Positions 180 to 46,638 of a stretch of DNA of 64,000 nucleotides are shown piece after piece (the first letter of the stretch is position 1; every line of letters begins with the position of its first letter). The notes below the pieces were generated by a model. That model had not been told where the DNA came from. It did no database searches and saw only the letters and a list, made by a program, of their open reading frames with translations. The stretch comes from an uncultured Dehalococcoidales bacterium (GTDB taxonomy: Bacteria; Chloroflexota; Dehalococcoidia; GIF9; UBA5629). The DNA is taken from the NCBI GenBank assembly GCA_964605885.1, contig CAZSED010000001.1, positions 70,428-134,427 on the forward strand, read 5' to 3'. Made by a program: the position numbers and the translations under genes.

Positions 180-1193
180 ATGGCCAGGACAGCGGACAAA
201 CTGATTCCACCGGGGCTAGCCTACATAGCCGAAAATATTCACAAAAGCGATAACATACTTGGCCTTCCCAGGCAGGCCAAGTCTAAATGGGCCGAGGGTA
301 TCGAGTTCTCCAAGGACAGGTCAACCATCTTCTTTGCCGGCTGCGGCTACCAGTATTCCGCCATGCTTGAGCCGCTGGTGAACGTCATCGGCACGGCGGA
401 CAAGATGGCGGTCAATCCCGATTTACCGGTGCACCTGGCGAACCTGCCTAAGAAGCTGGGAATGGATGTGGCGGGCATTTTTTCCAAGACGGTAGCCGGT
501 GACAAGGGTGGCGAATCCGCGGTGCTGCGTGACGCGGTGAAAGTCCTGAAAGCTTTGGGCCTGGACATAGGCTACCTTGGAGAGCACGAGCCTTGCTGCG
601 GTGCTCCTCTCTACCATATAGGCGTGCGCAATAAGTTCTCCGCCCACGCCGGTAAAAGCCACCATGCCTTCAAGGAGGCGGGCGTGAAACGGATCATCAG
701 CATTGTCCCCTCCTGCACGTACGCGCTCAAGACGCTCTACAGCAGGTCGGGGGTGGAGCATGATATCGAGGTGCTGCATTTCACCGAGGTGGCGGCGGAT
801 AAAGTCAAAAGCCTCAAGCTGAAATACCCCGACCGGGTGAAGGTGGCCTATCACGACCCCTGCCAACTGGGCAGGTACATGGGCCTCATAGAGCAGCCGC
901 GCACCATATTGAAATCAATTGAGAATATCGAGCTGGTGGAAACGGCCTGGACCTCGGGCGAGTGGGCCACCTGTTGCGGCGGTGGCGGTGGTTTTGAAGT
1001 GGTCTTTCCGGATATAAGCCGCAAGCTTGCGGCCGGCCGCGTGGCCGAGCTGGCTGAGACAGGAGCGAATATAATAGCCACCCAGTGCCCGGGCTGCCTG
1101 ATGCAGCTCAAGAGCGGGCTGAAAGACTTGAAGAACGACAAAATTGAGGTTATAGACCTTGCCACCCTGATGGCCAGGTCCCTGCCCGGATAA
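180..1193 (+). CDS. (Fe-S)-binding protein with two CCG cysteine-rich domains, LutA/GlcF/HdrB-like
   Basis: CCG-type motifs EPCCGAPLYHIG and ATCCGGGGGF plus PCQLGRY and QCPGCLMQ. Directly followed by a LutB-like gene. Confidence 0.7.
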   Translation: MARTADKLIPPGLAYIAENIHKSDNILGLPRQAKSKWAEGIEFSKDRSTIFFAGCGYQYSAMLEPLVNVIGTADKMAVNPDLPVHLANLPKKLGMDVAGIFSKTVAGDKGGESAVLRDAVKVLKALGLDIGYLGEHEPCCGAPLYHIGVRNKFSAHAGKSHHAFKEAGVKRIISIVPSCTYALKTLYSRSGVEHDIEVLHFTEVAADKVKSLKLKYPDRVKVAYHDPCQLGRYMGLIEQPRTILKSIENIELVETAWTSGEWATCCGGGGGFEVVFPDISRKLAAGRVAELAETGANIIATQCPGCLMQLKSGLKDLKNDKIEVIDLATLMARSLPG

Positions 1194-2381
1194 ATGACGA
1201 TATCCAAGGACTACAGGAAGGAGCTCAGGGACGCCGCAGGAAACGAGCGGATACGCCTGGCCCTGTCGCGCGCCATCAAGAGCTACCGCGAGAACACGAA
1301 AAACACCCTCAAGAAATTCCCGCATACCGTCAGGATGGCGGAGGAGGTCTTGCTCATCAAGGAGCACTCCGTCCAGCACATGCGGGAACTGGCCGAGGAG
1401 GCCAGCCGCGCTATTGAGGAGAACAAAGGCAAGGCCTATATAGCCGATACTGCCGAGCAGGCCCTGGAGATAATCGGCGGGCTGGTGGGGAGCGGCAAGC
1501 TGATAGTCAAGGCCAAGAGCATGACCGCCGAGGAGATCGAGCTGCGCGAGCACCTGGAGGAAGCGGGCAACGACGTCTACGAGACCGACCTGGGCGAGTT
1601 CATCATTCAGAAACTGAACTCACGTCCCATGCACATACTATCACCCGCCATTCACGTACCGCGTGAGGACGTGGCCAAGCTGTTCTCCCAGATCACGGGC
1701 AAGGACCTGCCGCCGGACATCGCTACGCTGGTGGCCACCGCCCGTCAACTTCTGCGCGAGAAGTACTTCACGGCGGATATAGGCATGAGCAGCGCCAACG
1801 TGGTGGCGGCCGATACCGGCACGCTGTTCCTGATAGAGAACGAGGGAAATATTCGCCTGGCCACGGGTGCCCCGCCCATCCATATAGCTTTGATAGGCAT
1901 GGAGAAGCTTGTACCGACGCTCGAGGACGCTTTCAAGGTGGCCGAGGTCACCTGGCGCTACGCCAACTATGGCATACCCTCCTATGTAAGCCTTGTATCC
2001 GGTCCCAGCAAGACCGGAGATATTGAGAAGGTGACCACCTACGGCGCCCACGGGCCCAAGGAGTTCCATGTCATATTCCTGGACGGCGGCAGGACGGAGC
2101 TGGCCGCCGACCCGATTTTGCGGCAGGTGCTTTACTGCCTGCGCTGCGGGGGCTGCCTGTATGAGTGTCCCGTGTTCGGGCTTACGGCAGGCTATTTCGG
2201 TGACAAGTACTTCGCCGGCATCGGGGCTGTATGGGCCGCCAAGGTGCATAAGAACCTGGAGAAGGGCTCATCCATGGCCTATACCTGCCTGACCTGCGGC
2301 AGGTGCAAGGTCCGCTGCCCCATGAAGATAGACGTCCCCGAGATGATACTCAAGCTGCGCAATTCCATCGTCGAGCCGTAG
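1194..2381 (+). CDS. LutB-like lactate-utilisation iron-sulfur protein (LUD domain plus 4Fe-4S motifs)
   Basis: ATG immediately after the upstream stop suggests translational coupling. Cysteine-rich C-terminal region CLRCGGCLYECPV...CLTCGRCKVRCP resembles a LutB dicluster domain. Confidence 0.7.
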   Translation: MTISKDYRKELRDAAGNERIRLALSRAIKSYRENTKNTLKKFPHTVRMAEEVLLIKEHSVQHMRELAEEASRAIEENKGKAYIADTAEQALEIIGGLVGSGKLIVKAKSMTAEEIELREHLEEAGNDVYETDLGEFIIQKLNSRPMHILSPAIHVPREDVAKLFSQITGKDLPPDIATLVATARQLLREKYFTADIGMSSANVVAADTGTLFLIENEGNIRLATGAPPIHIALIGMEKLVPTLEDAFKVAEVTWRYANYGIPSYVSLVSGPSKTGDIEKVTTYGAHGPKEFHVIFLDGGRTELAADPILRQVLYCLRCGGCLYECPVFGLTAGYFGDKYFAGIGAVWAAKVHKNLEKGSSMAYTCLTCGRCKVRCPMKIDVPEMILKLRNSIVEP

Positions 2382-22064: not shown

Positions 22065-22205
22065 TTAGGCTTTGCCGATGCGGAACATCTTGGTGCCGCA
22101 TTTGGCGCAGACACCCTGGGTTGCCGGTTTGCCATTCTTCATTTTAATGGCCCTGGCGTTTTTAATTTCCCTCTTGGACCGGCATTTCATGCAATAAGCT
22201 TCCAT
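22065..22205 (-). CDS. DUF5679-like zinc-ribbon small protein
   Basis: MEAYCMKCRSKREIKN...GVCAKCGTKMFRIG. Strong RBS AGGAGGT 7 nt before the ATG at 22205. Confidence 0.55.
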   Translation of the reverse strand: MEAYCMKCRSKREIKNARAIKMKNGKPATQGVCAKCGTKMFRIGKA

Positions 22206-22410
22206 CAATAAACCTCCTATGTATTTGAGGTTTAGGATAGTCGATTGCTTGAAGCTTGTCAAGTATCATTTGTATACAAAATAGCTTCGGATTACCTGGT
22301 TTAGCCGTATCGAACGTAAAAAATACGGAAAGATACGTAAAATTTCATATATTCGAACTTCGTAAAAACAGGCTGCTTGCAGGCTTTGAGAATTTTCGTG
22401 CCGCAGCACT

Positions 22411-23026: not shown

Positions 23027-23505
23027 AGAAGTCTGGCAGGCCCGGGCTGGATGAATATTTCCTGAAGATAGCCTCCGTTGTTGCCGAAAGGTCCACCTGC
23101 AAGCGGCACCATGTGGGTGCGGTGGCCGTGCGGGACAAGCATATACTGTCTACGGGCTATAACGGGGCGGCTGCCGGCGTGAGCGACTGCCTGGAGCTGG
23201 GTTGCCTGCGTGACGAGCTGAAGATACCTTCCGGAACACGCCATGAGATCTGCCGGGGCATACATGCGGAGCAGAATGCCATTATTCAGGCTTCACTACA
23301 CGGCGTCAGCCTTGAAGGCGCCACCCTGTACTGCACGCACACGCCCTGCATCCTGTGTGCCAAGATGCTGGCCAACGCCCGCATCAAACGCTTCGTCACC
23401 TTCGGCAAATATGCCGATGACTCTTTCCTGGAGCTGTTCAAGGAAACGGGAATTAAATTTGAAGTTAAACCCAGGCCGCGTTTAGAGATAACCAGGCTTG
23501 ATTGA
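23023..23505 (+). CDS. deoxycytidylate (dCMP) deaminase, ComEB/Dcd-like zinc deaminase
   Basis: HAEQNAI and [10 protein letters not shown] zinc-binding motifs. Confidence 0.85.
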
Positions 23506-23525
23506 TTTTGCGGCGGAGAAACGGG

Positions 23526-23732
23526 ATGAGAGAATGCAATATTGCTGCTAATAAATCACGCTGCAACTGTACTTATGAGCCCTGCCCGCGCAAGGGCATT
23601 TGCTGCGATTGCCTGCGATATCACCTGGAGTCGGATGAAATGCCCGCCTGTTTCTTTCCGCCTGAAGTAGAAAAGACCTACGACAGGTCCATCGAAAGAT
23701 TCATCTCCTGCCGCAAACCAGGCCGGCGTTGA
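23526..23732 (+). CDS. small cysteine-rich protein (DUF6485-like)
   Basis: CNCTYEPCPRKGICCDCLRYH cluster. Translationally coupled to the deaminase. The longer ORF starts at 23502. Confidence 0.45.
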   Translation: MRECNIAANKSRCNCTYEPCPRKGICCDCLRYHLESDEMPACFFPPEVEKTYDRSIERFISCRKPGRR

Positions 23733-26896: not shown

Positions 26897-27099
26897 CGAG
26901 GATTGCTCCCGTGGTCCGCCGCATGGGGCGGGTAGCCCGATATTATAACATCGCCTGCAGCGATTATATAATCCTGCCATGTTTACAAAACAGCAGTTGC
27001 GCTTTTGCGCAACTGCTTATTAAGCAAAATGGCGGATGGCGCTATATACGGCCGGTGTTAAATTATGCTAAAGGCAAAGAAGTACAGGAGGCAACTAAA

Positions 27100-27441
27100 A
27101 TGGCTAAGACATTAGAAACGATTGCGACCAAGTCAGAGCCCAAGGAAGAGCGCGGTTTCAATTTCTGGACCGACAAGGCCCCGTGCTGGGAGGTCTCTCA
27201 CTGCACCAATATGATCAAAGCGGAGTGCCCGGCCTTCAGGTATCAGTTCCTGCCGTGCTGGGAGATAGAAGGGACCTACTGCAAGCTGGACGACTACGGC
27301 AACGACGGCAAGGACACCGCCATCTGCGAAGTGTGCCGCGTGTACAAGGCATATGGTGAGGGAAAGCCCATCCAGTTAAAGCTGCAGGGCAGGGGGATCA
27401 ATACCTCGCTCAAGACACTGGAAGAGGTAGCTGTCAGCTAG
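27100..27441 (+). CDS. small cysteine-rich protein, paralog A (unknown family)
   Basis: RBS ACAGGAGG. Seven conserved Cys, FLPCWEIEGTYCKLDD core and ICEVCRVYK. The long N-terminal extension in the ORF track (from 26911) is rejected. Confidence 0.65.
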   Translation: MAKTLETIATKSEPKEERGFNFWTDKAPCWEVSHCTNMIKAECPAFRYQFLPCWEIEGTYCKLDDYGNDGKDTAICEVCRVYKAYGEGKPIQLKLQGRGINTSLKTLEEVAVS

Positions 27442-27468
27442 CCAGGTTGCACTCTCGATAAATATAAA

Positions 27469-27501
27469 TTCCCCCCTCGTAAAAGAGAGGGGAATTTTTT
27501 T
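27469..27501 (+). terminator. rho-independent terminator
   Basis: CCCCCCTC-GTAAAA-GAGAGGGG hairpin followed by TTTTTTT. Confidence 0.6.
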
Positions 27502-27643
27502 ATGCCTTTTTGCGGCGCCGGCCCAACAGTTGCGCAAAAGCGCAAGTCTAATTTAAGCCTTAATACGGATGGCGCTGTTTGGTACGGCTGGTAAATTGAG
27601 GCATAACAAAAAAACAACCTGACAGAACAAGGAGGTAAATCAA

Positions 27644-27985
27644 ATGGCCGAGACTAAAGTAAGGACTAAGAAAGCTGCCGAAGTTAAAGCAGATAGCGGT
27701 GTGAATTTCTGGGCTGACAAGGTGTCATGCTTTGAGCTGTGCAAGTGCCCGGATATGATTAAGATGGAATGCCCCGTGGAGAAATACCAGTTCCTGCCTT
27801 GCTGGGAGATCGAGGGCACCTACTGCAAGCTGGACGACAAGGGAGCCACCGGGCGTGATACCAGCATCTGCGAGACCTGCAGGGTCTATAAGAAGTATGG
27901 CAACGGCGAGCCCATCGTGCTCAAGCTCTTCGGCAAGGGTATCGATACCCACCTGAGGGAGCTCGACAAAGTCGACGTAAAATAG
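27644..27985 (+). CDS. small cysteine-rich protein, paralog B
   Basis: RBS AAGGAGG. About 60% identical to paralog A with the same Cys spacing. Confidence 0.7.
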   Translation: MAETKVRTKKAAEVKADSGVNFWADKVSCFELCKCPDMIKMECPVEKYQFLPCWEIEGTYCKLDDKGATGRDTSICETCRVYKKYGNGEPIVLKLFGKGIDTHLRELDKVDVK

Positions 27986-28005
27986 GTCTGATCAGGTAAA
28001 TGCAA

Positions 28006-28037
28006 GGGGCCGGCCCACCAGGGCCGGCCCCTTTATT
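28006..28037 (+). terminator. rho-independent terminator
   Basis: GGGGCCGGCCC-ACCA-GGGCCGGCCCC stem followed by TTTATT. Confidence 0.6.
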
Positions 28038-28051
28038 ATGTGCTGAACAAT

Positions 28052-28597
28052 CTATTCACGGCAGGCATTATCGGAGGGAGTGCGCAACGAGAGCGATTCC
28101 CTCAGCTGTTTCAAGTTGACTACATCGTCCCGGTTGTACCTTAGAAGCAGGCTTAGGGCCTCCAGGTCATTCAACCTGCGGTAGCGCCGCCACAGCCGCA
28201 CGGCATCCATCCCCGTCAGTCCCTCGGTCTCGCGGTCGATGCCCAGGTTGTGCAATACTGCTTTCAAGCCGCCTCTCAGGTTACAGCGCCAGCAGTCGAA
28301 CATCAGGTCCTGGTGCTTATGCATGCGGCTGAGGTCGGGGCCGAGGCAGTCACGAATGAAGGGCAGGTCGAAGCGCTCACCATTGTAAGTGAACAGGTTT
28401 TCCGTACCCTGCATTACCTCCAGCAGGTGGCCCGGGGTAAGGTTCTCATTGTAAAGCTGCACCAGCCGACCGTCGTTTTGGCCGCAGAAATAAATGCCTA
28501 CGACCGTGATGCTGTTGTACCAGGAGTATAGACCGGTTGTCTCAATATCAAGGTAAGCGTCAGTATATCCCAGCATGCTGCATTGATTATACTGCAA
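28052..28597 (-). CDS. RNase H-like 3'-5' exonuclease domain protein (YprB-like)
   Basis: DIETTGL acidic motif, then further Asp/His motifs of the DnaQ-like fold. Confidence 0.55.
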   Translation of the reverse strand: MQYNQCSMLGYTDAYLDIETTGLYSWYNSITVVGIYFCGQNDGRLVQLYNENLTPGHLLEVMQGTENLFTYNGERFDLPFIRDCLGPDLSRMHKHQDLMFDCWRCNLRGGLKAVLHNLGIDRETEGLTGMDAVRLWRRYRRLNDLEALSLLLRYNRDDVVNLKQLRESLSLRTPSDNACRE

Positions 28598-28626: not shown

Positions 28627-29478
28627 TCAGCCCGCTTCAGATTTCAGAGCGGCGTTGACCGCGCTCAGCTTGGCGCAGAACAGCAATACCCATCCTGCCA
28701 GATAGATGAACATGAGCAGGGCTATCACCGCTCCTATCGGCCCGTATACCAGGTTATAATGGCTGAAGTTCTTGATGTACCAGATAAAGACAAACCTGAC
28801 TATCTCGAATCCTATTGCGGCCAGCAGTGCTCCCAGCCAGATATCCTTCCATCTCGGCCGACGGCTGGGGATGGCTTTGTAGAGCAGGAGAATTATCAGA
28901 AAGGCCAGGATTGAGCTTAAGATGGTAAAAACTGTGGCGGAGGTGACCGTGCTGTTCAGGACCTGGAAGGTGTCGCTGTGAAAATTGTGGGTATGCAATA
29001 TCCTCACCCCGGTCGTCAACCAGACATAGACTATCAGCAGAACAAATGCCGAGACCATCATGGCCATATCGATGGCCTTGCCTTTTATATAGGAGACGGC
29101 CTTGACCGACCAGGCTTTATTCAGGGATTCCCGCAGCGCTGAAAAGAAGGCGGAGGCGCTCCATACCAGGCCCACCAGGGCTATTATGCCGGTGGCGGCC
29201 CTGGCTTCTACCACACCGTGCAGGGTATTGGCTATCATGTTGCGCGCTACCGGGAGCAGCGTGCCCAGCGCGGCTATCACCGCGTCCTCGAATTTTGGCG
29301 ATTCCATGACAAATCCCGCGATGGATATTATGGCCAGTGCGAAAGGGAAAAGGGAAAAAAGCAAATTATAAGAAACTGCAGCCGCCAGCAGGCTGCCGCT
29401 GTCGGCATTGAACTGGAAATATGTCTGCTTGAGGACCGTTATGACGCTGGGCTTCTTAGCCTGTTTCACATTTTCCAT
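28627..29478 (-). CDS. YihY/BrkB family membrane protein
   Basis: LLAAAVSYNLLFSLFPF motif and six TM helices. Confidence 0.8.
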   Translation of the reverse strand: MENVKQAKKPSVITVLKQTYFQFNADSGSLLAAAVSYNLLFSLFPFALAIISIAGFVMESPKFEDAVIAALGTLLPVARNMIANTLHGVVEARAATGIIALVGLVWSASAFFSALRESLNKAWSVKAVSYIKGKAIDMAMMVSAFVLLIVYVWLTTGVRILHTHNFHSDTFQVLNSTVTSATVFTILSSILAFLIILLLYKAIPSRRPRWKDIWLGALLAAIGFEIVRFVFIWYIKNFSHYNLVYGPIGAVIALLMFIYLAGWVLLFCAKLSAVNAALKSEAG

Positions 29479-30902
29479 AGTCGTTCCCTCTCAAGATACA
29501 TTCGGGCTGCGTGAAAGCCGCACATGCCGTGCACCCCGGCGCCCGGCGGAGTTGAAGCCGAACAAATAAACACCCCTTTCAGGGGAGTCGAGTAGGGGTT
29601 GATCCGGCAGGAGGGGCGGCAAAATATCTGCTTTAGCGTCTGCGCGCCGCCGGTTATATCGCCGCCCACCAGGTTGGGGTTCTCCGCCTCAAGCGCTGCC
29701 AGAGACGATACGTGCCTGGCCAGAATCAGGTCTGTAAATCCCGGTGCGAAACGCTCCACCTGGGCTTCGATGCCGCCCGTCATATCGCGGCTGCCGCCGT
29801 TGGGCACGTGGCAGTAGGCCCAGGCGGTGTGCTTTCCTGATGGCGCCCTGGACGGGTCAAACAGGCTGGGCTGGGCCAGCAGAACAAAGGGCCTGGACGG
29901 CACCCTCCCGTGCCAGGCCGCGGACTCGGCTTCAGCTATCTCATCATAACTGCCGCCCAGGTGCACCGTGCCGGCCGAGGCGCAGGCGCTGGATTTCCAT
30001 GGGATGGGGCCGGAAAGAGCCCAGTCGATTTTAAAGGCGCCCGGGCCGTACGCATAGCGCCGCAGCGACCGGCGATAACCGGCAGTCAGCCTATCGCCGA
30101 ACACCTTGATAATCTGAGCCGGCGAGGTATCAAAGAAAAAAGCTTTTGCCGCGGGAAGGTCGGCGGCTGAGCTGACCTTAACGCCCGTCTTTACAGTGCA
30201 GCCCATTGAGACAAGATATTTAGAAAGGCAATCGGATATGGCGTCGGCTCCGCCCTGCGGTATCGGCCATCCCTGCCGGTGCCCCATGGCAGCCAGCACC
30301 AGGCCTATCCCCGCCGACGCAGGGCTATTCAGAGGCAATACCGAGTGAGAGGCCAGCCCGGCGAAAAAACCGCGGGCCCTCGGCCCGCGGAAGCGGCGTG
30401 AGATAACCTGCGCCGATTGCACAACTTCCATGCCGAATAGTGCCCAGGCCAACGGGTGGCGGGGAAGCCTCCTGGTCCCCAGCACGTCGTCCATAAGATT
30501 GTCCCACCTATTCAGAATCGGCTGTATCAGCCCGGTATAAGCGGCGGCATCCTTTCCCAGGGTGGCGGCCGATTCTTCCGGGCTGCCTTTTAACAGTGCG
30601 GGGGGGCCGTCGTCGAAAGGGTGGGCCATGGAGACCGGTGGAGTTATCCATTTGAGGCCGAGGTCTTTGAGCGGCAGGGCCGAGAAAAACGGCGAGGCTA
30701 CAGCTATAGGGTAAGCGGCCGGGCCGACATCGTGTATATACCCCGGAAGCGTAAGCTCCGCTGACCGCGCGCTGCCCCCGATATAAGCCGCGCCTTCCAG
30801 GACGATAACCTTTAAGCCGTGTTGGGCCAGCGTAATGGCCGCGGCCAGCCCGTTGGGGCCGGAACCTATAACAGCGGCGTCATATGAGGCGGACGTTGGC
30901 AT
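29466..30902 (-). CDS. phytoene desaturase family FAD/NAD(P)-binding oxidoreductase (CrtI-like)
   Basis: N-terminal DAAVIGSGPNGLAAA dinucleotide-binding motif. 478 aa. Confidence 0.8.
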   Translation of the reverse strand: MPTSASYDAAVIGSGPNGLAAAITLAQHGLKVIVLEGAAYIGGSARSAELTLPGYIHDVGPAAYPIAVASPFFSALPLKDLGLKWITPPVSMAHPFDDGPPALLKGSPEESAATLGKDAAAYTGLIQPILNRWDNLMDDVLGTRRLPRHPLAWALFGMEVVQSAQVISRRFRGPRARGFFAGLASHSVLPLNSPASAGIGLVLAAMGHRQGWPIPQGGADAISDCLSKYLVSMGCTVKTGVKVSSAADLPAAKAFFFDTSPAQIIKVFGDRLTAGYRRSLRRYAYGPGAFKIDWALSGPIPWKSSACASAGTVHLGGSYDEIAEAESAAWHGRVPSRPFVLLAQPSLFDPSRAPSGKHTAWAYCHVPNGGSRDMTGGIEAQVERFAPGFTDLILARHVSSLAALEAENPNLVGGDITGGAQTLKQIFCRPSCRINPYSTPLKGVFICSASTPPGAGVHGMCGFHAARMYLERERLWKM

Positions 30903-30926: not shown

Positions 30927-31970
30927 TTACGGGTGGGTAAGCGCGTAAAGCATGCTGGTCAACTGTGCGTTGCGCAGGAAGTTAAACGTCCTGGACCAGT
31001 GCAGCGAGCGGTCCAGGCATTGTTTGGTGAATTGCACCCTGGCCGGAACGCCCGTTAATCTTGCCAACGACTCCAATACATGGGTCCAGATCCCCTGTTG
31101 CAGTGCTGATCCTGCCATGCGGAAGGCCGCTTCGTAAATAGGATCGCTGGCCCGGGCCAGGCCGCGTACTTGCATGAAGGTCACACCCCTGTCTGCAAAC
31201 GAGCGGAATGTTACCCAGCCGGCTTCGGGGTGTCCCTGCGGGGTGATGAATGTGAAGGTGTCCCGGGCAGCGTATAAAACGGACACGGCTGTGGCCACCA
31301 GGCCCCCGGGAGTGGAGGCATTTATCAATACTATTTCGCCCGGCTTTATGCCGTTTTTTGCAGGGTAAAATTTGTTTTCCGCAGGCTGCAGCGCTGGAAA
31401 ATTGGATTTCACCGTGTCAATTACCTGTGATGGCGTAAGCCCCGCCTCCGATATATCGAGCGTGTAGGTCTTCTCCCAGAGCTGGCCGAAGCCCTGCAAG
31501 GGGCCCGCAGTCCGGCGTCCATTTACGTTAAGGTTAACCGCGCCCGGCGGGACCTCCGTCACAACCAGTTTTTGAACATACGGAGCCCAGTACTGGATGT
31601 CCCGCGGCTCCGGCTTGACGGCCTGCGTGATATCGGTCGTGCGGGCGGCCTTGATCACCTCGGAATCGCTGGAATTAATGTGAAATCCTGTGTCCAGGCC
31701 GGTCAATGTGAGCACTTCGCGATAATGCTGGCTCAGCCCCACTGCATAAAACCTGCAGCCCGTCCCGGCGTAGAGCGCATGCAGCTTGACCAGAACGTTG
31801 ATGGCGGTATTATCGAAGAACGCCACCCCGCTGAAATCCAGGATGATCAGCCTGTTGGCTGCGGGATTAGACGTCTTGATAACGTCTGCCAGCTCTTCTT
31901 CGCACGAGCCTGTGAACTCGGCGGCCAGTGCAATTTCAATGACGCCGGATCCTGCCTGGATGAGCCTCAT
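30927..31970 (-). CDS. STAS domain (anti-sigma-factor-antagonist-like) fused to a C-terminal domain of unknown function
   Basis: The N-terminal ~110 aa match a STAS fold (LIILDFSGVAFFDNTAINVLVKL). The C-terminal 230 aa are unassigned. Confidence 0.55.
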   Translation of the reverse strand: MRLIQAGSGVIEIALAAEFTGSCEEELADVIKTSNPAANRLIILDFSGVAFFDNTAINVLVKLHALYAGTGCRFYAVGLSQHYREVLTLTGLDTGFHINSSDSEVIKAARTTDITQAVKPEPRDIQYWAPYVQKLVVTEVPPGAVNLNVNGRRTAGPLQGFGQLWEKTYTLDISEAGLTPSQVIDTVKSNFPALQPAENKFYPAKNGIKPGEIVLINASTPGGLVATAVSVLYAARDTFTFITPQGHPEAGWVTFRSFADRGVTFMQVRGLARASDPIYEAAFRMAGSALQQGIWTHVLESLARLTGVPARVQFTKQCLDRSLHWSRTFNFLRNAQLTSMLYALTHP

Positions 31971-41102: not shown

Positions 41103-41191
41103 TGGCGGAGGGGGCGGGATTCGAACCCGCGTTAGCAAAAAGCTAAAACGGTTTTCAAGACCGTCACCATCGTCCGCTCGGTCACCCCTCC
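41103..41191 (-). tRNA. tRNA-Ser (anticodon TGA), encoded CCA, long variable arm
   Basis: The minus-strand sequence GGAGGGGTGACCGAGCGG...CGGTCTTGAAAACCG...GGGTTCGAATCCCGCCCCCTCCGCCA folds as a class II tRNA. The anticodon loop CTTGAAA gives UGA. Confidence 0.85.
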
Positions 41192-46053: not shown

Positions 46054-46638
46054 TCACTGTGAGGGCTTGAAAACCTCGGGCACAGTGGGAGATGCCAGCC
46101 ATTTGGTGATTGTATCGTAGTTGTTAATTACGTACATTGCCAGCAGGATGAGAAGTATAACCAGGATAACGCTAACTATTATAGTGGTGAGGCTGCCGCC
46201 TTTGCTCCTTTCGGGCTGCTCTTCCTCCTCTTCCTCTTCATCGGATTCGTCCTCGTATTCAGCCTCAAAGTCCTCATCCTCATCTCTGCGTTTGCCCTTT
46301 TTATATTCTTTTTCTTCAAGCCGGTCCATATCTTCAATATGGTCCAGCATGGGGCTGCGCCGGCGGATGCCCGCCGGGAATTTGTCCTCGTCATCCTCCC
46401 GGCTGCCCCGCATCCTGGATGGCGCTTCGTCAGCAATATCTACCGGCCCGGCGTCGACAAAACCGCCGGCGGAAGGTGTGAAGCTCTCCCTTCGTCCTGC
46501 AGCCGGACCTGCGCTTGCCCCTGCAGCGGATTCAGTCCTATTCACAAAGTCATGCGGCCCCAGACTGCCGCAGGCATCGCACTTCTGATTGATGGAAGGC
46601 ATGGGATTTCCGCATTTACATCTGAACTGAGTTTCCAA
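46054..46638 (-). CDS. paralog 3 (truncated): zinc ribbon, poly-acidic tract and TM helix only
   Basis: Start chosen at a TTG with RBS AAGGAG 8 nt upstream (METQFRCKCG...). CKCGN...CDACGS ribbon. Acidic run DEDEDFEAEYEDESDEEEEEEEQ. C-terminal TM helix. No FN3 or TlpA domains. Confidence 0.5.
   Translation of the reverse strand: METQFRCKCGNPMPSINQKCDACGSLGPHDFVNRTESAAGASAGPAAGRRESFTPSAGGFVDAGPVDIADEAPSRMRGSREDDEDKFPAGIRRRSPMLDHIEDMDRLEEKEYKKGKRRDEDEDFEAEYEDESDEEEEEEEQPERSKGGSLTTIIVSVILVILLILLAMYVINNYDTITKWLASPTVPEVFKPSQ

Follow-up and report, generated by a model that had tools for sequence, protein, structure and literature searches.

The two-CW domain is catalogued in NCBIfam as NF045718 and is otherwise uncharacterised. 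It is compact, its 65 or so residues holding seven cysteines and two Cys-Trp motifs; it has no Pfam model and no solved structure, and in the literature searched no paper was found on the domain, on cysteine-rich HAMP chemoreceptors or on the palindrome sequence described below. Two groups of small cysteine-rich proteins offer further points of comparison. WhiB-like (Wbl) proteins of Actinobacteria carry four cysteines in a different motif and bind a sigma factor, and desulforedoxins, rubredoxins and ferredoxins are metalloproteins of oxygen defence in anaerobes. Here we describe a tandem pair of genes for stand-alone two-CW proteins in a 64,000-nucleotide stretch of DNA from an uncultured Dehalococcoidales bacterium (GenBank assembly GCA_964605885.1, contig CAZSED010000001.1, positions 70,428 to 134,427 of the forward strand; the whole stretch is referred to as the window). 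The pair belongs to a family of Dehalococcoidia and other Chloroflexota whose genes share a promoter built from a palindrome, a second conserved box and an extended -10 element. We put the chances at about even that these proteins are stand-alone redox-sensing modules, which would act through a partner and be expressed as a small dedicated regulon.

Both genes lie on the forward strand and encode proteins of 113 amino acids, gene 1 at 27100-27441 and gene 2 at 27644-27985. Their products align without gaps over 112 residues at 59% identity (E-value 3e-50) and have seven cysteines in common (C29, C35, C43, C53, C61, C76 and C79), all invariant across a 22-sequence family alignment; the gene 2 product has an additional, eighth cysteine at position 33. 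The core YQFLPCWEIEGTYCKLDD...ICE(V/T)CRVYK is found in both proteins. The two CW motifs are C29-W30 and C53-W54 in the gene 1 product and C29-F30 and C53-W54 in the gene 2 product, where the first motif is thus CF. Conservation in the 22-sequence alignment is strong beyond the cysteines as well, and includes the two tryptophans and an EGTYCKLDD block. Around the domain, the window proteins have an N-terminal tail of about 20 residues and a conserved C-terminal extension of about 25 residues, the tail being conserved as G.G.PI.LKL.G.GI, and their isoelectric points are near neutral (5.5 and 7.5). A Shine-Dalgarno sequence AGGAGG stands 8 nucleotides 5' of each ATG on the forward strand (27086-27091 for gene 1 and 27630-27635 for gene 2), and most family genes are preceded by AGGAGG or GGAGG. 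A longer open reading frame at 26911-27441 (176 amino acids, GTG start) was rejected as the true gene 1, since it spans the promoter, the homologs are 107-143 amino acids long and it is the ATG at 27100 that has a Shine-Dalgarno sequence before it. An earlier reading of these letters by a model, made without database searches and called here the sequence-only reading, had proposed tandem paralogs at these positions with seven conserved cysteines, the same core and strong ribosome-binding sites, and on each of these points it was borne out.

Assignment to the two-CW superfamily can be made through NCBIfam. In a scan of that library each protein has a single match, NF045718, at 24.7 bits for gene 1 (E 2.3e-5) and 20.6 bits for gene 2 (E 4.4e-4), against a curated cut-off of 35 bits. 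The alignment of both proteins covers model positions 2-77 of 80, and the order of cysteines is shared with the model (C-x5-C-x7-CP...CW-x6-C-x14-C-x2-C-V-Y), with two Cys-aromatic motifs in each. A family profile searched exhaustively against 1.84 billion proteins yields 261 representatives only, and it reaches the protein P0228 at E 5.5e-7, whose domain scores 43 bits against NF045718 and so lies above the cut-off. In an alignment of 54 diverse sequences, 43 members match NF045718 (best E 9e-22); C29, C35, C43, C53, W54, C76 and C79 are the same in every sequence, and conservation is 90% or more at W30, G58, T59 and C61. A wider profile finds the domain in about 3,250 protein clusters. Because P0228 passes the cut-off and 43 of the 54 relatives match the model, the window proteins are, on these profile matches, divergent stand-alone members of the two-CW superfamily. 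The sequence-only reading had not recognised the family: it is in fact catalogued, but it remains uncharacterised and the window proteins score below threshold.

Searches for other relationships were negative. A scan of the whole Pfam-A library with both proteins gave no family at E<=10, including no match to the Whib model, and sequence searches of the PDB with two profiles gave no match. A match to a well-characterised ferredoxin or rubredoxin class had been named beforehand as the result that would overturn the idea of a new family; in the Pfam, NCBIfam and PDB searches of the window proteins, no match to the ferredoxin, rubredoxin or desulforedoxin classes was found. Structure prediction with AlphaFold from the 22 close homologs only gave a model that is unusable (predicted local distance difference test score, pLDDT, 43). 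From the diverse 54-sequence alignment, a confident model was obtained (pLDDT 83.8), with residues 21-100 mostly above 90 and the chain folded into short helices; a fold search of this model gave no match in the PDB. Pfam DUF2769 (PF10967) gives weak matches for 7 of the 54 two-CW relatives and for the protein P0209 (best E 2e-4), which may indicate a remote kinship of two uncharacterised cysteine-rich families; P0209 itself scores 19.4 bits, under the Pfam cut-off of 22.8, and the window proteins are unmatched.

In other phyla, the two-CW domain is found in signalling proteins. Its partners include chemoreceptors, histidine kinases, a GGDEF cyclase, receiver domains, which the two-CW domain follows, and adjacent HEAT repeats; it can also lie C-terminal to MCP signalling domains, and it is doubled in GGDEF and kinase proteins. 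The best matches of the core profile are proteins of 127-150 amino acids that join an XRE-type helix-turn-helix to a two-CW domain, such as P0313 and P0328 of Thermodesulfobacteriota. A profile of the embedded type retrieves mostly proteins of 127-150 amino acids, many with an N-terminal XRE-type helix-turn-helix, among them P0387, which carries the NCBI name two-CW domain-containing protein. In six proteins (P0252, P0228, P0217, P0265, P0218 and P0209), partial HAMP matches either stop near profile position 31 before the domain or start near position 33 after it. Because these partial matches end and begin around the domain in this way, they suggest that the two-CW domain is an insert placed between the HAMP helices, where a sensor is not usually found. 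The overall pattern of fusions (XRE helix-turn-helix, HAMP/MCP, kinase, GGDEF and receiver) is, as judged from domain architecture, the signature of an input or sensor domain.

Compared with these relatives, the window proteins are the plainer form. Relative to NF045718 as catalogued, they are stand-alone, with N- and C-terminal tails and, in gene 2, a CF motif, and they belong to a multi-paralog family that is specific to Dehalococcoidia and Chloroflexota and has its own promoter. The XRE regulators of Thermodesulfobacteriota are small too and share the seven-cysteine domain, but the N-terminal helix-turn-helix is theirs only. The HAMP-associated proteins P0228, P0252, P0217 and P0265 share the domain core, with P0228 above the NF045718 cut-off, and differ in being membrane signalling proteins in which the domain is embedded, sometimes as two tandem copies, with a longer loop between C61 and C76 and without the conserved C-terminal tail of the stand-alone family. 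Likeness to Wbl proteins is one of analogy only: both families consist of small, cysteine-rich proteins restricted to one lineage, both have several paralogs per genome that are transcribed separately, and both are connected with redox stress; the Pfam scan shows no sequence similarity (no hit at E<=10). Desulforedoxin, rubredoxin and the ferredoxins are also small and cysteine-rich, and one desulforedoxin gene shares the promoter described below; the window proteins, however, match neither the Rubredoxin, Desulfoferrod_N and Fer4 models nor any of these folds, and have neither a CxxCxxCxxxCP motif nor paired CxxC knuckles.

The upstream regions of the two genes align without gaps, and in the same order both show CAGTTGCGC-N4-GCGCAA, TTAAGC, CGGATGGCGCT, 15 nucleotides, TAAATT preceded by TGn, and then the Shine-Dalgarno sequence. 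For gene 1, a perfect 16-base-pair palindrome, TTGCGCTTTTGCGCAA (TTGCGC-N4-GCGCAA), lies at 26997-27012, with its centre about 66 base pairs 5' of the predicted transcription start near 27071. It is followed on the forward strand by TTAAGC at 27020-27025, by a CGGATG core in the -35 region at 27033-27043, within an exact GGATGGCGCT at 27034-27043, and by the extended -10 element TGTTAAATT at 27056-27064. For gene 2, the corresponding elements are the perfect 16-base-pair palindrome TTGCGCAAAAGCGCAA at 27530-27545, whose central A-tract is inverted relative to the first copy, TTAAGC at 27553-27558, CGGATG at 27566-27576 within GGATGGCGCT (exact at 27567-27576) and the extended -10 element TGGTAAATT at 27589-27597, with a predicted start near 27604. 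Each palindrome is a candidate operator. TTGCGC-N4-GCGCAA occurs twice in the window, both times at these genes.

This architecture is a property of the whole family. Upstream regions were taken from 114 family genes and anchored on the palindrome, which gave 85 non-identical promoters, and these align free of gaps, with constant distances between the palindrome, TTAAGC, CGGATG and TGnTAAATT. Numbered from the first base of the palindrome core, logo positions 0-14 read TGCGC-WWNW-GCGCA(A), the anchor, with an A/T tract as the central four bases; positions 22-27 read (T)TAAGC, with T23, A24 and G26 in at least 83 of 85; positions 35-40 read CGGATG, each in at least 84 of 85; and positions 58-66 read TGnTAAATT, nearly invariant at the 85 loci. 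In all 85 promoters the palindrome core TGCGC-N4-GCGCA stands 58 nucleotides 5' of the TG of the extended -10 element. The sequence-only reading had offered alignment of the upstream regions as a check that would count against it if the motif proved unconserved. Conservation holds in the window as well as at the 85 loci, and the elements named in that reading fare unevenly. The extended -10 TGnTAAATT keeps its register in both copies and across the family. The upstream element GGATGGCGCT is exact in both copies and its CGGATG is family-wide, but the GCGCT that follows is conserved in part only. Both copies also contain ACGGCYGGT (27048-27056 and 27584-27592), but it is 3 nucleotides out of register with the other elements and falls within logo positions 44-57, which carry almost no information, so that it is probably due to chance. 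That reading had also omitted TTAAGC and the palindrome, the most distinctive regulatory element of all.

TGnTAAATT fits a sigma-70 extended -10 element (TGn plus a hexamer that keeps T1, A2 and T6), and a generic promoter scan skipped it for want of a -35 match; no recognisable -35 hexamer is present in the family promoter. For this reason, an extended -10 promoter assisted by bound factors would be the simplest reading. If TAAATT is the -10 element, the midpoints of the (T)TAAGC-N7-CGGATG box and of the palindrome would fall near -42 and -66, respectively. Orthologs differ in the central tract of the palindrome, which reads TTTT in some and AAAA in others; because such a flip is neutral for a two-fold symmetric DNA site and not for an RNA hairpin, the palindrome is better read as a DNA site. 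Sites of the CRP/FNR group have the form TTGNN-N4-NNCAA (FNR/FixK) or TGTGA-N6-TCACA (CRP) and are centred near -41.5 or -61.5. The palindrome half-site TTGCG is similar to that of FixK2 boxes such as TTGCGCGAGCGCAA (PMC9104804).

Several other explanations of these elements were considered and rejected. A riboswitch or leader RNA gave sub-threshold Rfam matches only, mostly over the terminators; there is no conserved promoter 5' of the palindrome, and the spacer orientation flips. A sigma-54 promoter (TGGCAC-N5-TTGC) at GGATGGCGCT has no GC at -12 and its trailing bases are unconserved. Reading TTGCGC-N17-TTAAGC as a -35/-10 pair fails at A2 and T6, the key positions of a -10 hexamer, both of which TTAAGC lacks. 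Finally, the palindrome is not the terminator of the upstream minus-strand gene, since that gene begins there and does not end there.

In the related DNA sampled, both palindrome and box are nearly exclusive to the family. Among 186 palindromes in 1.31 Mb of related DNA, 178 lie 60-330 nucleotides 5' of a family gene, 7 are at contig ends and 1 is elsewhere; the box is likewise near-exclusive to family genes, and it is also present in paralogs that have no palindrome. A metagenome scan for the full promoter pattern returned 83 matches, of which 74 are at family genes and 6 are truncated where a contig stops. Three more have neither a palindrome nor a recognisable downstream gene in the available stretch and are probably chance matches, and the same scan yielded one real target outside the family. 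At this locus, L102, the complete family promoter precedes a 41-amino-acid desulforedoxin gene, which is followed by a pyridine-nucleotide-disulfide oxidoreductase (Pyr_redox, NADH-oxidase), a rubrerythrin, a CoA-disulfide-reductase-like protein with a rhodanese domain, DUF488 and a hemerythrin-domain protein. The L102 oxidoreductase gene (360-1814, forward strand) has an in-frame TGA (VSYAP*GIPYLIG) where a paralog at L102 2745-4463 has its redox-active cysteine (VSYANCGLPYYIG); the TGA may be a selenocysteine codon rather than the mark of a pseudogene. Within the window there is a third exact GGATGGCGCT at 46417-46426 on the forward strand, with no TTAAGC, palindrome or family gene near it; this copy was rejected as a regulatory site and taken as chance, about 7.5 matches being expected at one mismatch or fewer.

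Each gene also has a terminator. The intrinsic terminator of gene 1, a GC-rich hairpin followed by a T-run, occupies 27466-27501 on the forward strand, and a scan places its site at 27473-27501. For gene 2, a 13-base-pair GC-rich hairpin with a moderately T-rich tail lies at 28004-28033; the genes on either side converge on it, and it probably serves the minus-strand gene at 28052-28597 as terminator too. In all, the scan marked 7 terminator-like sites, where shuffled sequences lead one to expect 1.5. Across the family, a hairpin and T-run lie within 100 nucleotides 3' of 83 of 105 genes, and the 70 nucleotides downstream have a median minimum-free-energy z-score of -4.6. These counts support the view that each family gene is a monocistronic unit with its own promoter and terminator. 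Individual terminators and independent, regulated expression had both been proposed from the letters of the window, and the two hairpins, together with the 85 promoters and 83 of 105 terminators of the family, agree with that proposal.

A genome scan found 158 relatives, all in metagenome-assembled genomes of Dehalococcoidia or Chloroflexota; several genomes have more than one locus, and several Dehalococcoidia genomes hold at least five gene copies of the stand-alone family. Clustering of 106 family proteins resolves orthogroups that differ in promoter and in neighbourhood. Gene 1 of the window belongs to the first (30 members, 29 with the palindrome, 28 at tandem loci) and gene 2 to the second (30 members, 28 with the palindrome, 28 at tandem loci), and about 28 species genomes have kept the tandem pair. 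Because the two orthogroups are separate and each is present at 28 tandem loci, the pair is, by this clustering, of long standing and conserved rather than the product of a recent duplication. The third orthogroup has 25 members, 24 of them with the palindrome, and 24 adjoin a cluster of rubrerythrin, flavin-reductase-rubredoxin, ODP/flavodiiron-like and desulfoferrodoxin (superoxide-reductase) genes; in terms of loci, the rubrerythrin/desulfoferrodoxin cluster adjoins 24 of 79 genome loci, and these account for 24 of the 25 members of this orthogroup. A variant of the same context also has SufC and SufB. In the fourth orthogroup, all 10 members have the box and none the palindrome, and all lie 5' of NuoE-like, NuoF-like and formate-dehydrogenase-like genes, with a NarL-type two-component system alongside; NuoE-like genes adjoin 14 of the 79 genome loci. 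Some paralog neighbourhoods hold an HMA P-type ATPase and MntP. At loci L165 and L168, the rubrerythrin clusters beside two-CW paralogs share a promoter-like sequence of their own (L165 5405-5470 and L168 5420-5475), GTGACTTT..TTAC..GCATA..TTGCTATAATG, which is unlike the two-CW promoter and may be the operator of a second regulator.

Taken together, conserved synteny and the L102 promoter appear to link the family in Dehalococcoidia with oxygen and redox defence. The interpretation of the proteins as redox sensors draws on the signalling fusions, the seven conserved cysteines, the oxygen-defence synteny and the L102 promoter instance. The idea of a redox or sensor protein, already raised from the letters alone, is strengthened by the fusions found elsewhere and by the synteny of sister paralogs with oxygen-defence and Fe-S enzyme clusters. 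Because seven cysteines are conserved, a metal centre in the two-CW protein is suggested. The protein would bind this centre, Fe-S or zinc, through cysteines, and the state of the centre would shift with oxygen, oxidants or cellular redox. Since the two-CW protein has no output domain, this state would be relayed by protein-protein contact, for which the conserved C-terminal tail may be the contact surface. Transcription would proceed from the extended -10 TGnTAAATT without a normal -35 element, the box near -42 and the palindrome near -66 standing in its place. Because box and palindrome are at fixed spacing, control by a regulator would be dedicated and probably activator-dependent. A strong ribosome-binding site and an intrinsic terminator would round off each unit, and the paralogs, with their common promoter, would together be a small regulon connected with the oxidative or redox stress of these anaerobes.

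A number of observations weigh against a redox-sensing role. The link to oxygen appears to come from paralogs and from a single promoter instance outside the family; the window pair itself is flanked by a major facilitator superfamily (MFS) transporter and an RNase H-like gene, with no redox gene adjoining. Beside the rubrerythrin clusters, the two-CW gene still ends at a terminator of its own and the cluster is served by another promoter, which makes this a case of adjacency and not of co-transcription. Both window proteins fall below the NF045718 cut-off (24.7 and 20.6 against 35 bits). C61 is substituted in some relatives, which reduces the strictly invariant set to six cysteines and matches no textbook Fe-S motif. 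Relative to FixK2 boxes, the spacing of the palindrome is 2 base pairs longer, and with a predicted centre near -66 it appears to be off the canonical CRP/FNR geometry. Lastly, the signals of high expression would fit an abundant redox carrier as well as they do a sensor.

This last point leads to the main rival explanation, under which the proteins would be small redox carriers like ferredoxin, rubredoxin or desulforedoxin, co-induced with and feeding electrons to rubrerythrin, superoxide reductase, flavodiiron proteins or a NuoEF-type complex. Such carriers could account for the complete family promoter that drives a desulforedoxin gene in L102, for the position of the third orthogroup beside the rubrerythrin/desulfoferrodoxin cluster and of the fourth beside NuoE/NuoF-like genes, for the strong ribosome-binding site and terminator of each gene, which hint at abundant small proteins, and for isoelectric points near neutral. 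However, fusions to helix-turn-helix, HAMP, kinase, MCP, GGDEF and receiver domains typify sensor inputs and are left unexplained, the adjoining clusters already encode a flavin-reductase-rubredoxin fusion as electron donor, and the searches of Pfam, NCBIfam and the PDB turned up nothing that resembles a ferredoxin or rubredoxin in family or in fold. We regard redox carriage as unlikely, while taking it more seriously than any other rival.

A second explanation is a more specific version of the sensor idea and relies on analogy. The proteins could be autoregulatory transcription cofactors in the manner of WhiB, which would act at the palindrome and box by joining RNA polymerase or a partner that binds DNA. 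The near-exclusive placement of these sites at family genes (in 1.3 Mb) is what autoregulation might produce, Thermodesulfobacteriota fuse the domain directly to an XRE helix-turn-helix, and the family is lineage-specific, multi-paralog, small, cysteine-rich and separately transcribed. Yet the proteins have no DNA-binding domain and no basic isoelectric point, an XRE-type helix-turn-helix gene of the fused kind was found neither in the window nor in 170 related loci, and the sample behind the exclusivity is about 1% of these genomes. L102, moreover, is one target outside the family. A cofactor of this kind seems a shade more doubtful than a redox carrier. Least likely, and in our view highly improbable, is that these are structural zinc or metal-buffering proteins, chaperones or stores with no redox or signalling role: the 7-8 cysteines without a classical Fe-S motif, the compact short-helix fold, the HMA P-type ATPase and MntP near some paralogs and the weak matches of a few relatives to zinc-finger-type Pfam models would suit them, but the extreme conservation outside the cysteines (two tryptophans, EGTYCKLDD) is unlike that of metal buffers, the signalling-domain fusions speak against a passive role and the synteny is with oxygen-defence and not metal-homeostasis genes.

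Redox sensing by stand-alone modules thus remains the preferred reading, and it can be extended into a broader proposal, which we hold only speculatively and consider improbable as a whole. Under this proposal, the stand-alone two-CW proteins would be an unrecognised class of redox- or oxygen-sensing transcription cofactors with a new metal-binding fold, the Chloroflexota counterpart of the WhiB-like proteins, autoregulating through palindrome and box and switching on the oxygen defence of the strictly anaerobic Dehalococcoidia; the domain would be a general redox input module of chemoreceptors, kinases, cyclases and XRE regulators across anaerobes.

Other features of the window can be noted briefly. 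Two small cysteine-rich open reading frames lie a few kilobases upstream of the pair, at 23502-23732 (forward strand) and 22065-22262 (reverse strand); in an identical contig, L001, they are annotated as DUF6485 (about 68-76 amino acids, with many cysteines) and as DUF5679, which is zinc-ribbon-like. At 30927-31970 on the reverse strand is a gene for a 347-amino-acid protein with an N-terminal STAS-like domain, adjoining that of a flavoprotein of the amino-oxidase/phytoene-desaturase type at 29466-30902 (reverse strand); neither belongs to the finding. The sole RNA gene reported in the window by Rfam and ARAGORN is a tRNA-Ser (anticodon TGA) at 41103-41191 on the reverse strand.

Dehalococcoidia are anaerobes of relevance to bioremediation and the carbon cycle. 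To our knowledge, their response to oxygen is not understood, and the literature searched gave nothing on the subject. According to the sources searched, what is new here is the stand-alone Dehalococcoidia family, its orthogroup structure, its three-part promoter and its link to oxygen defence; the domain itself is catalogued and uncharacterised. As an uncharacterised sensor domain of chemoreceptors, histidine kinases, diguanylate cyclases, receiver proteins and XRE regulators, two-CW has a reach well beyond this lineage, and if it does sit between the HAMP helices, it would represent an unusual coupling of a sensor to signal transmission. The Dehalococcoidia proteins, at 113 amino acids and probably abundant, are its simplest form and a handy entry point for work on the cofactor and the signal. 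For the organisms themselves, the link to rubrerythrin and superoxide reductase, together with a dedicated three-part promoter, would amount to a directly testable regulatory circuit.

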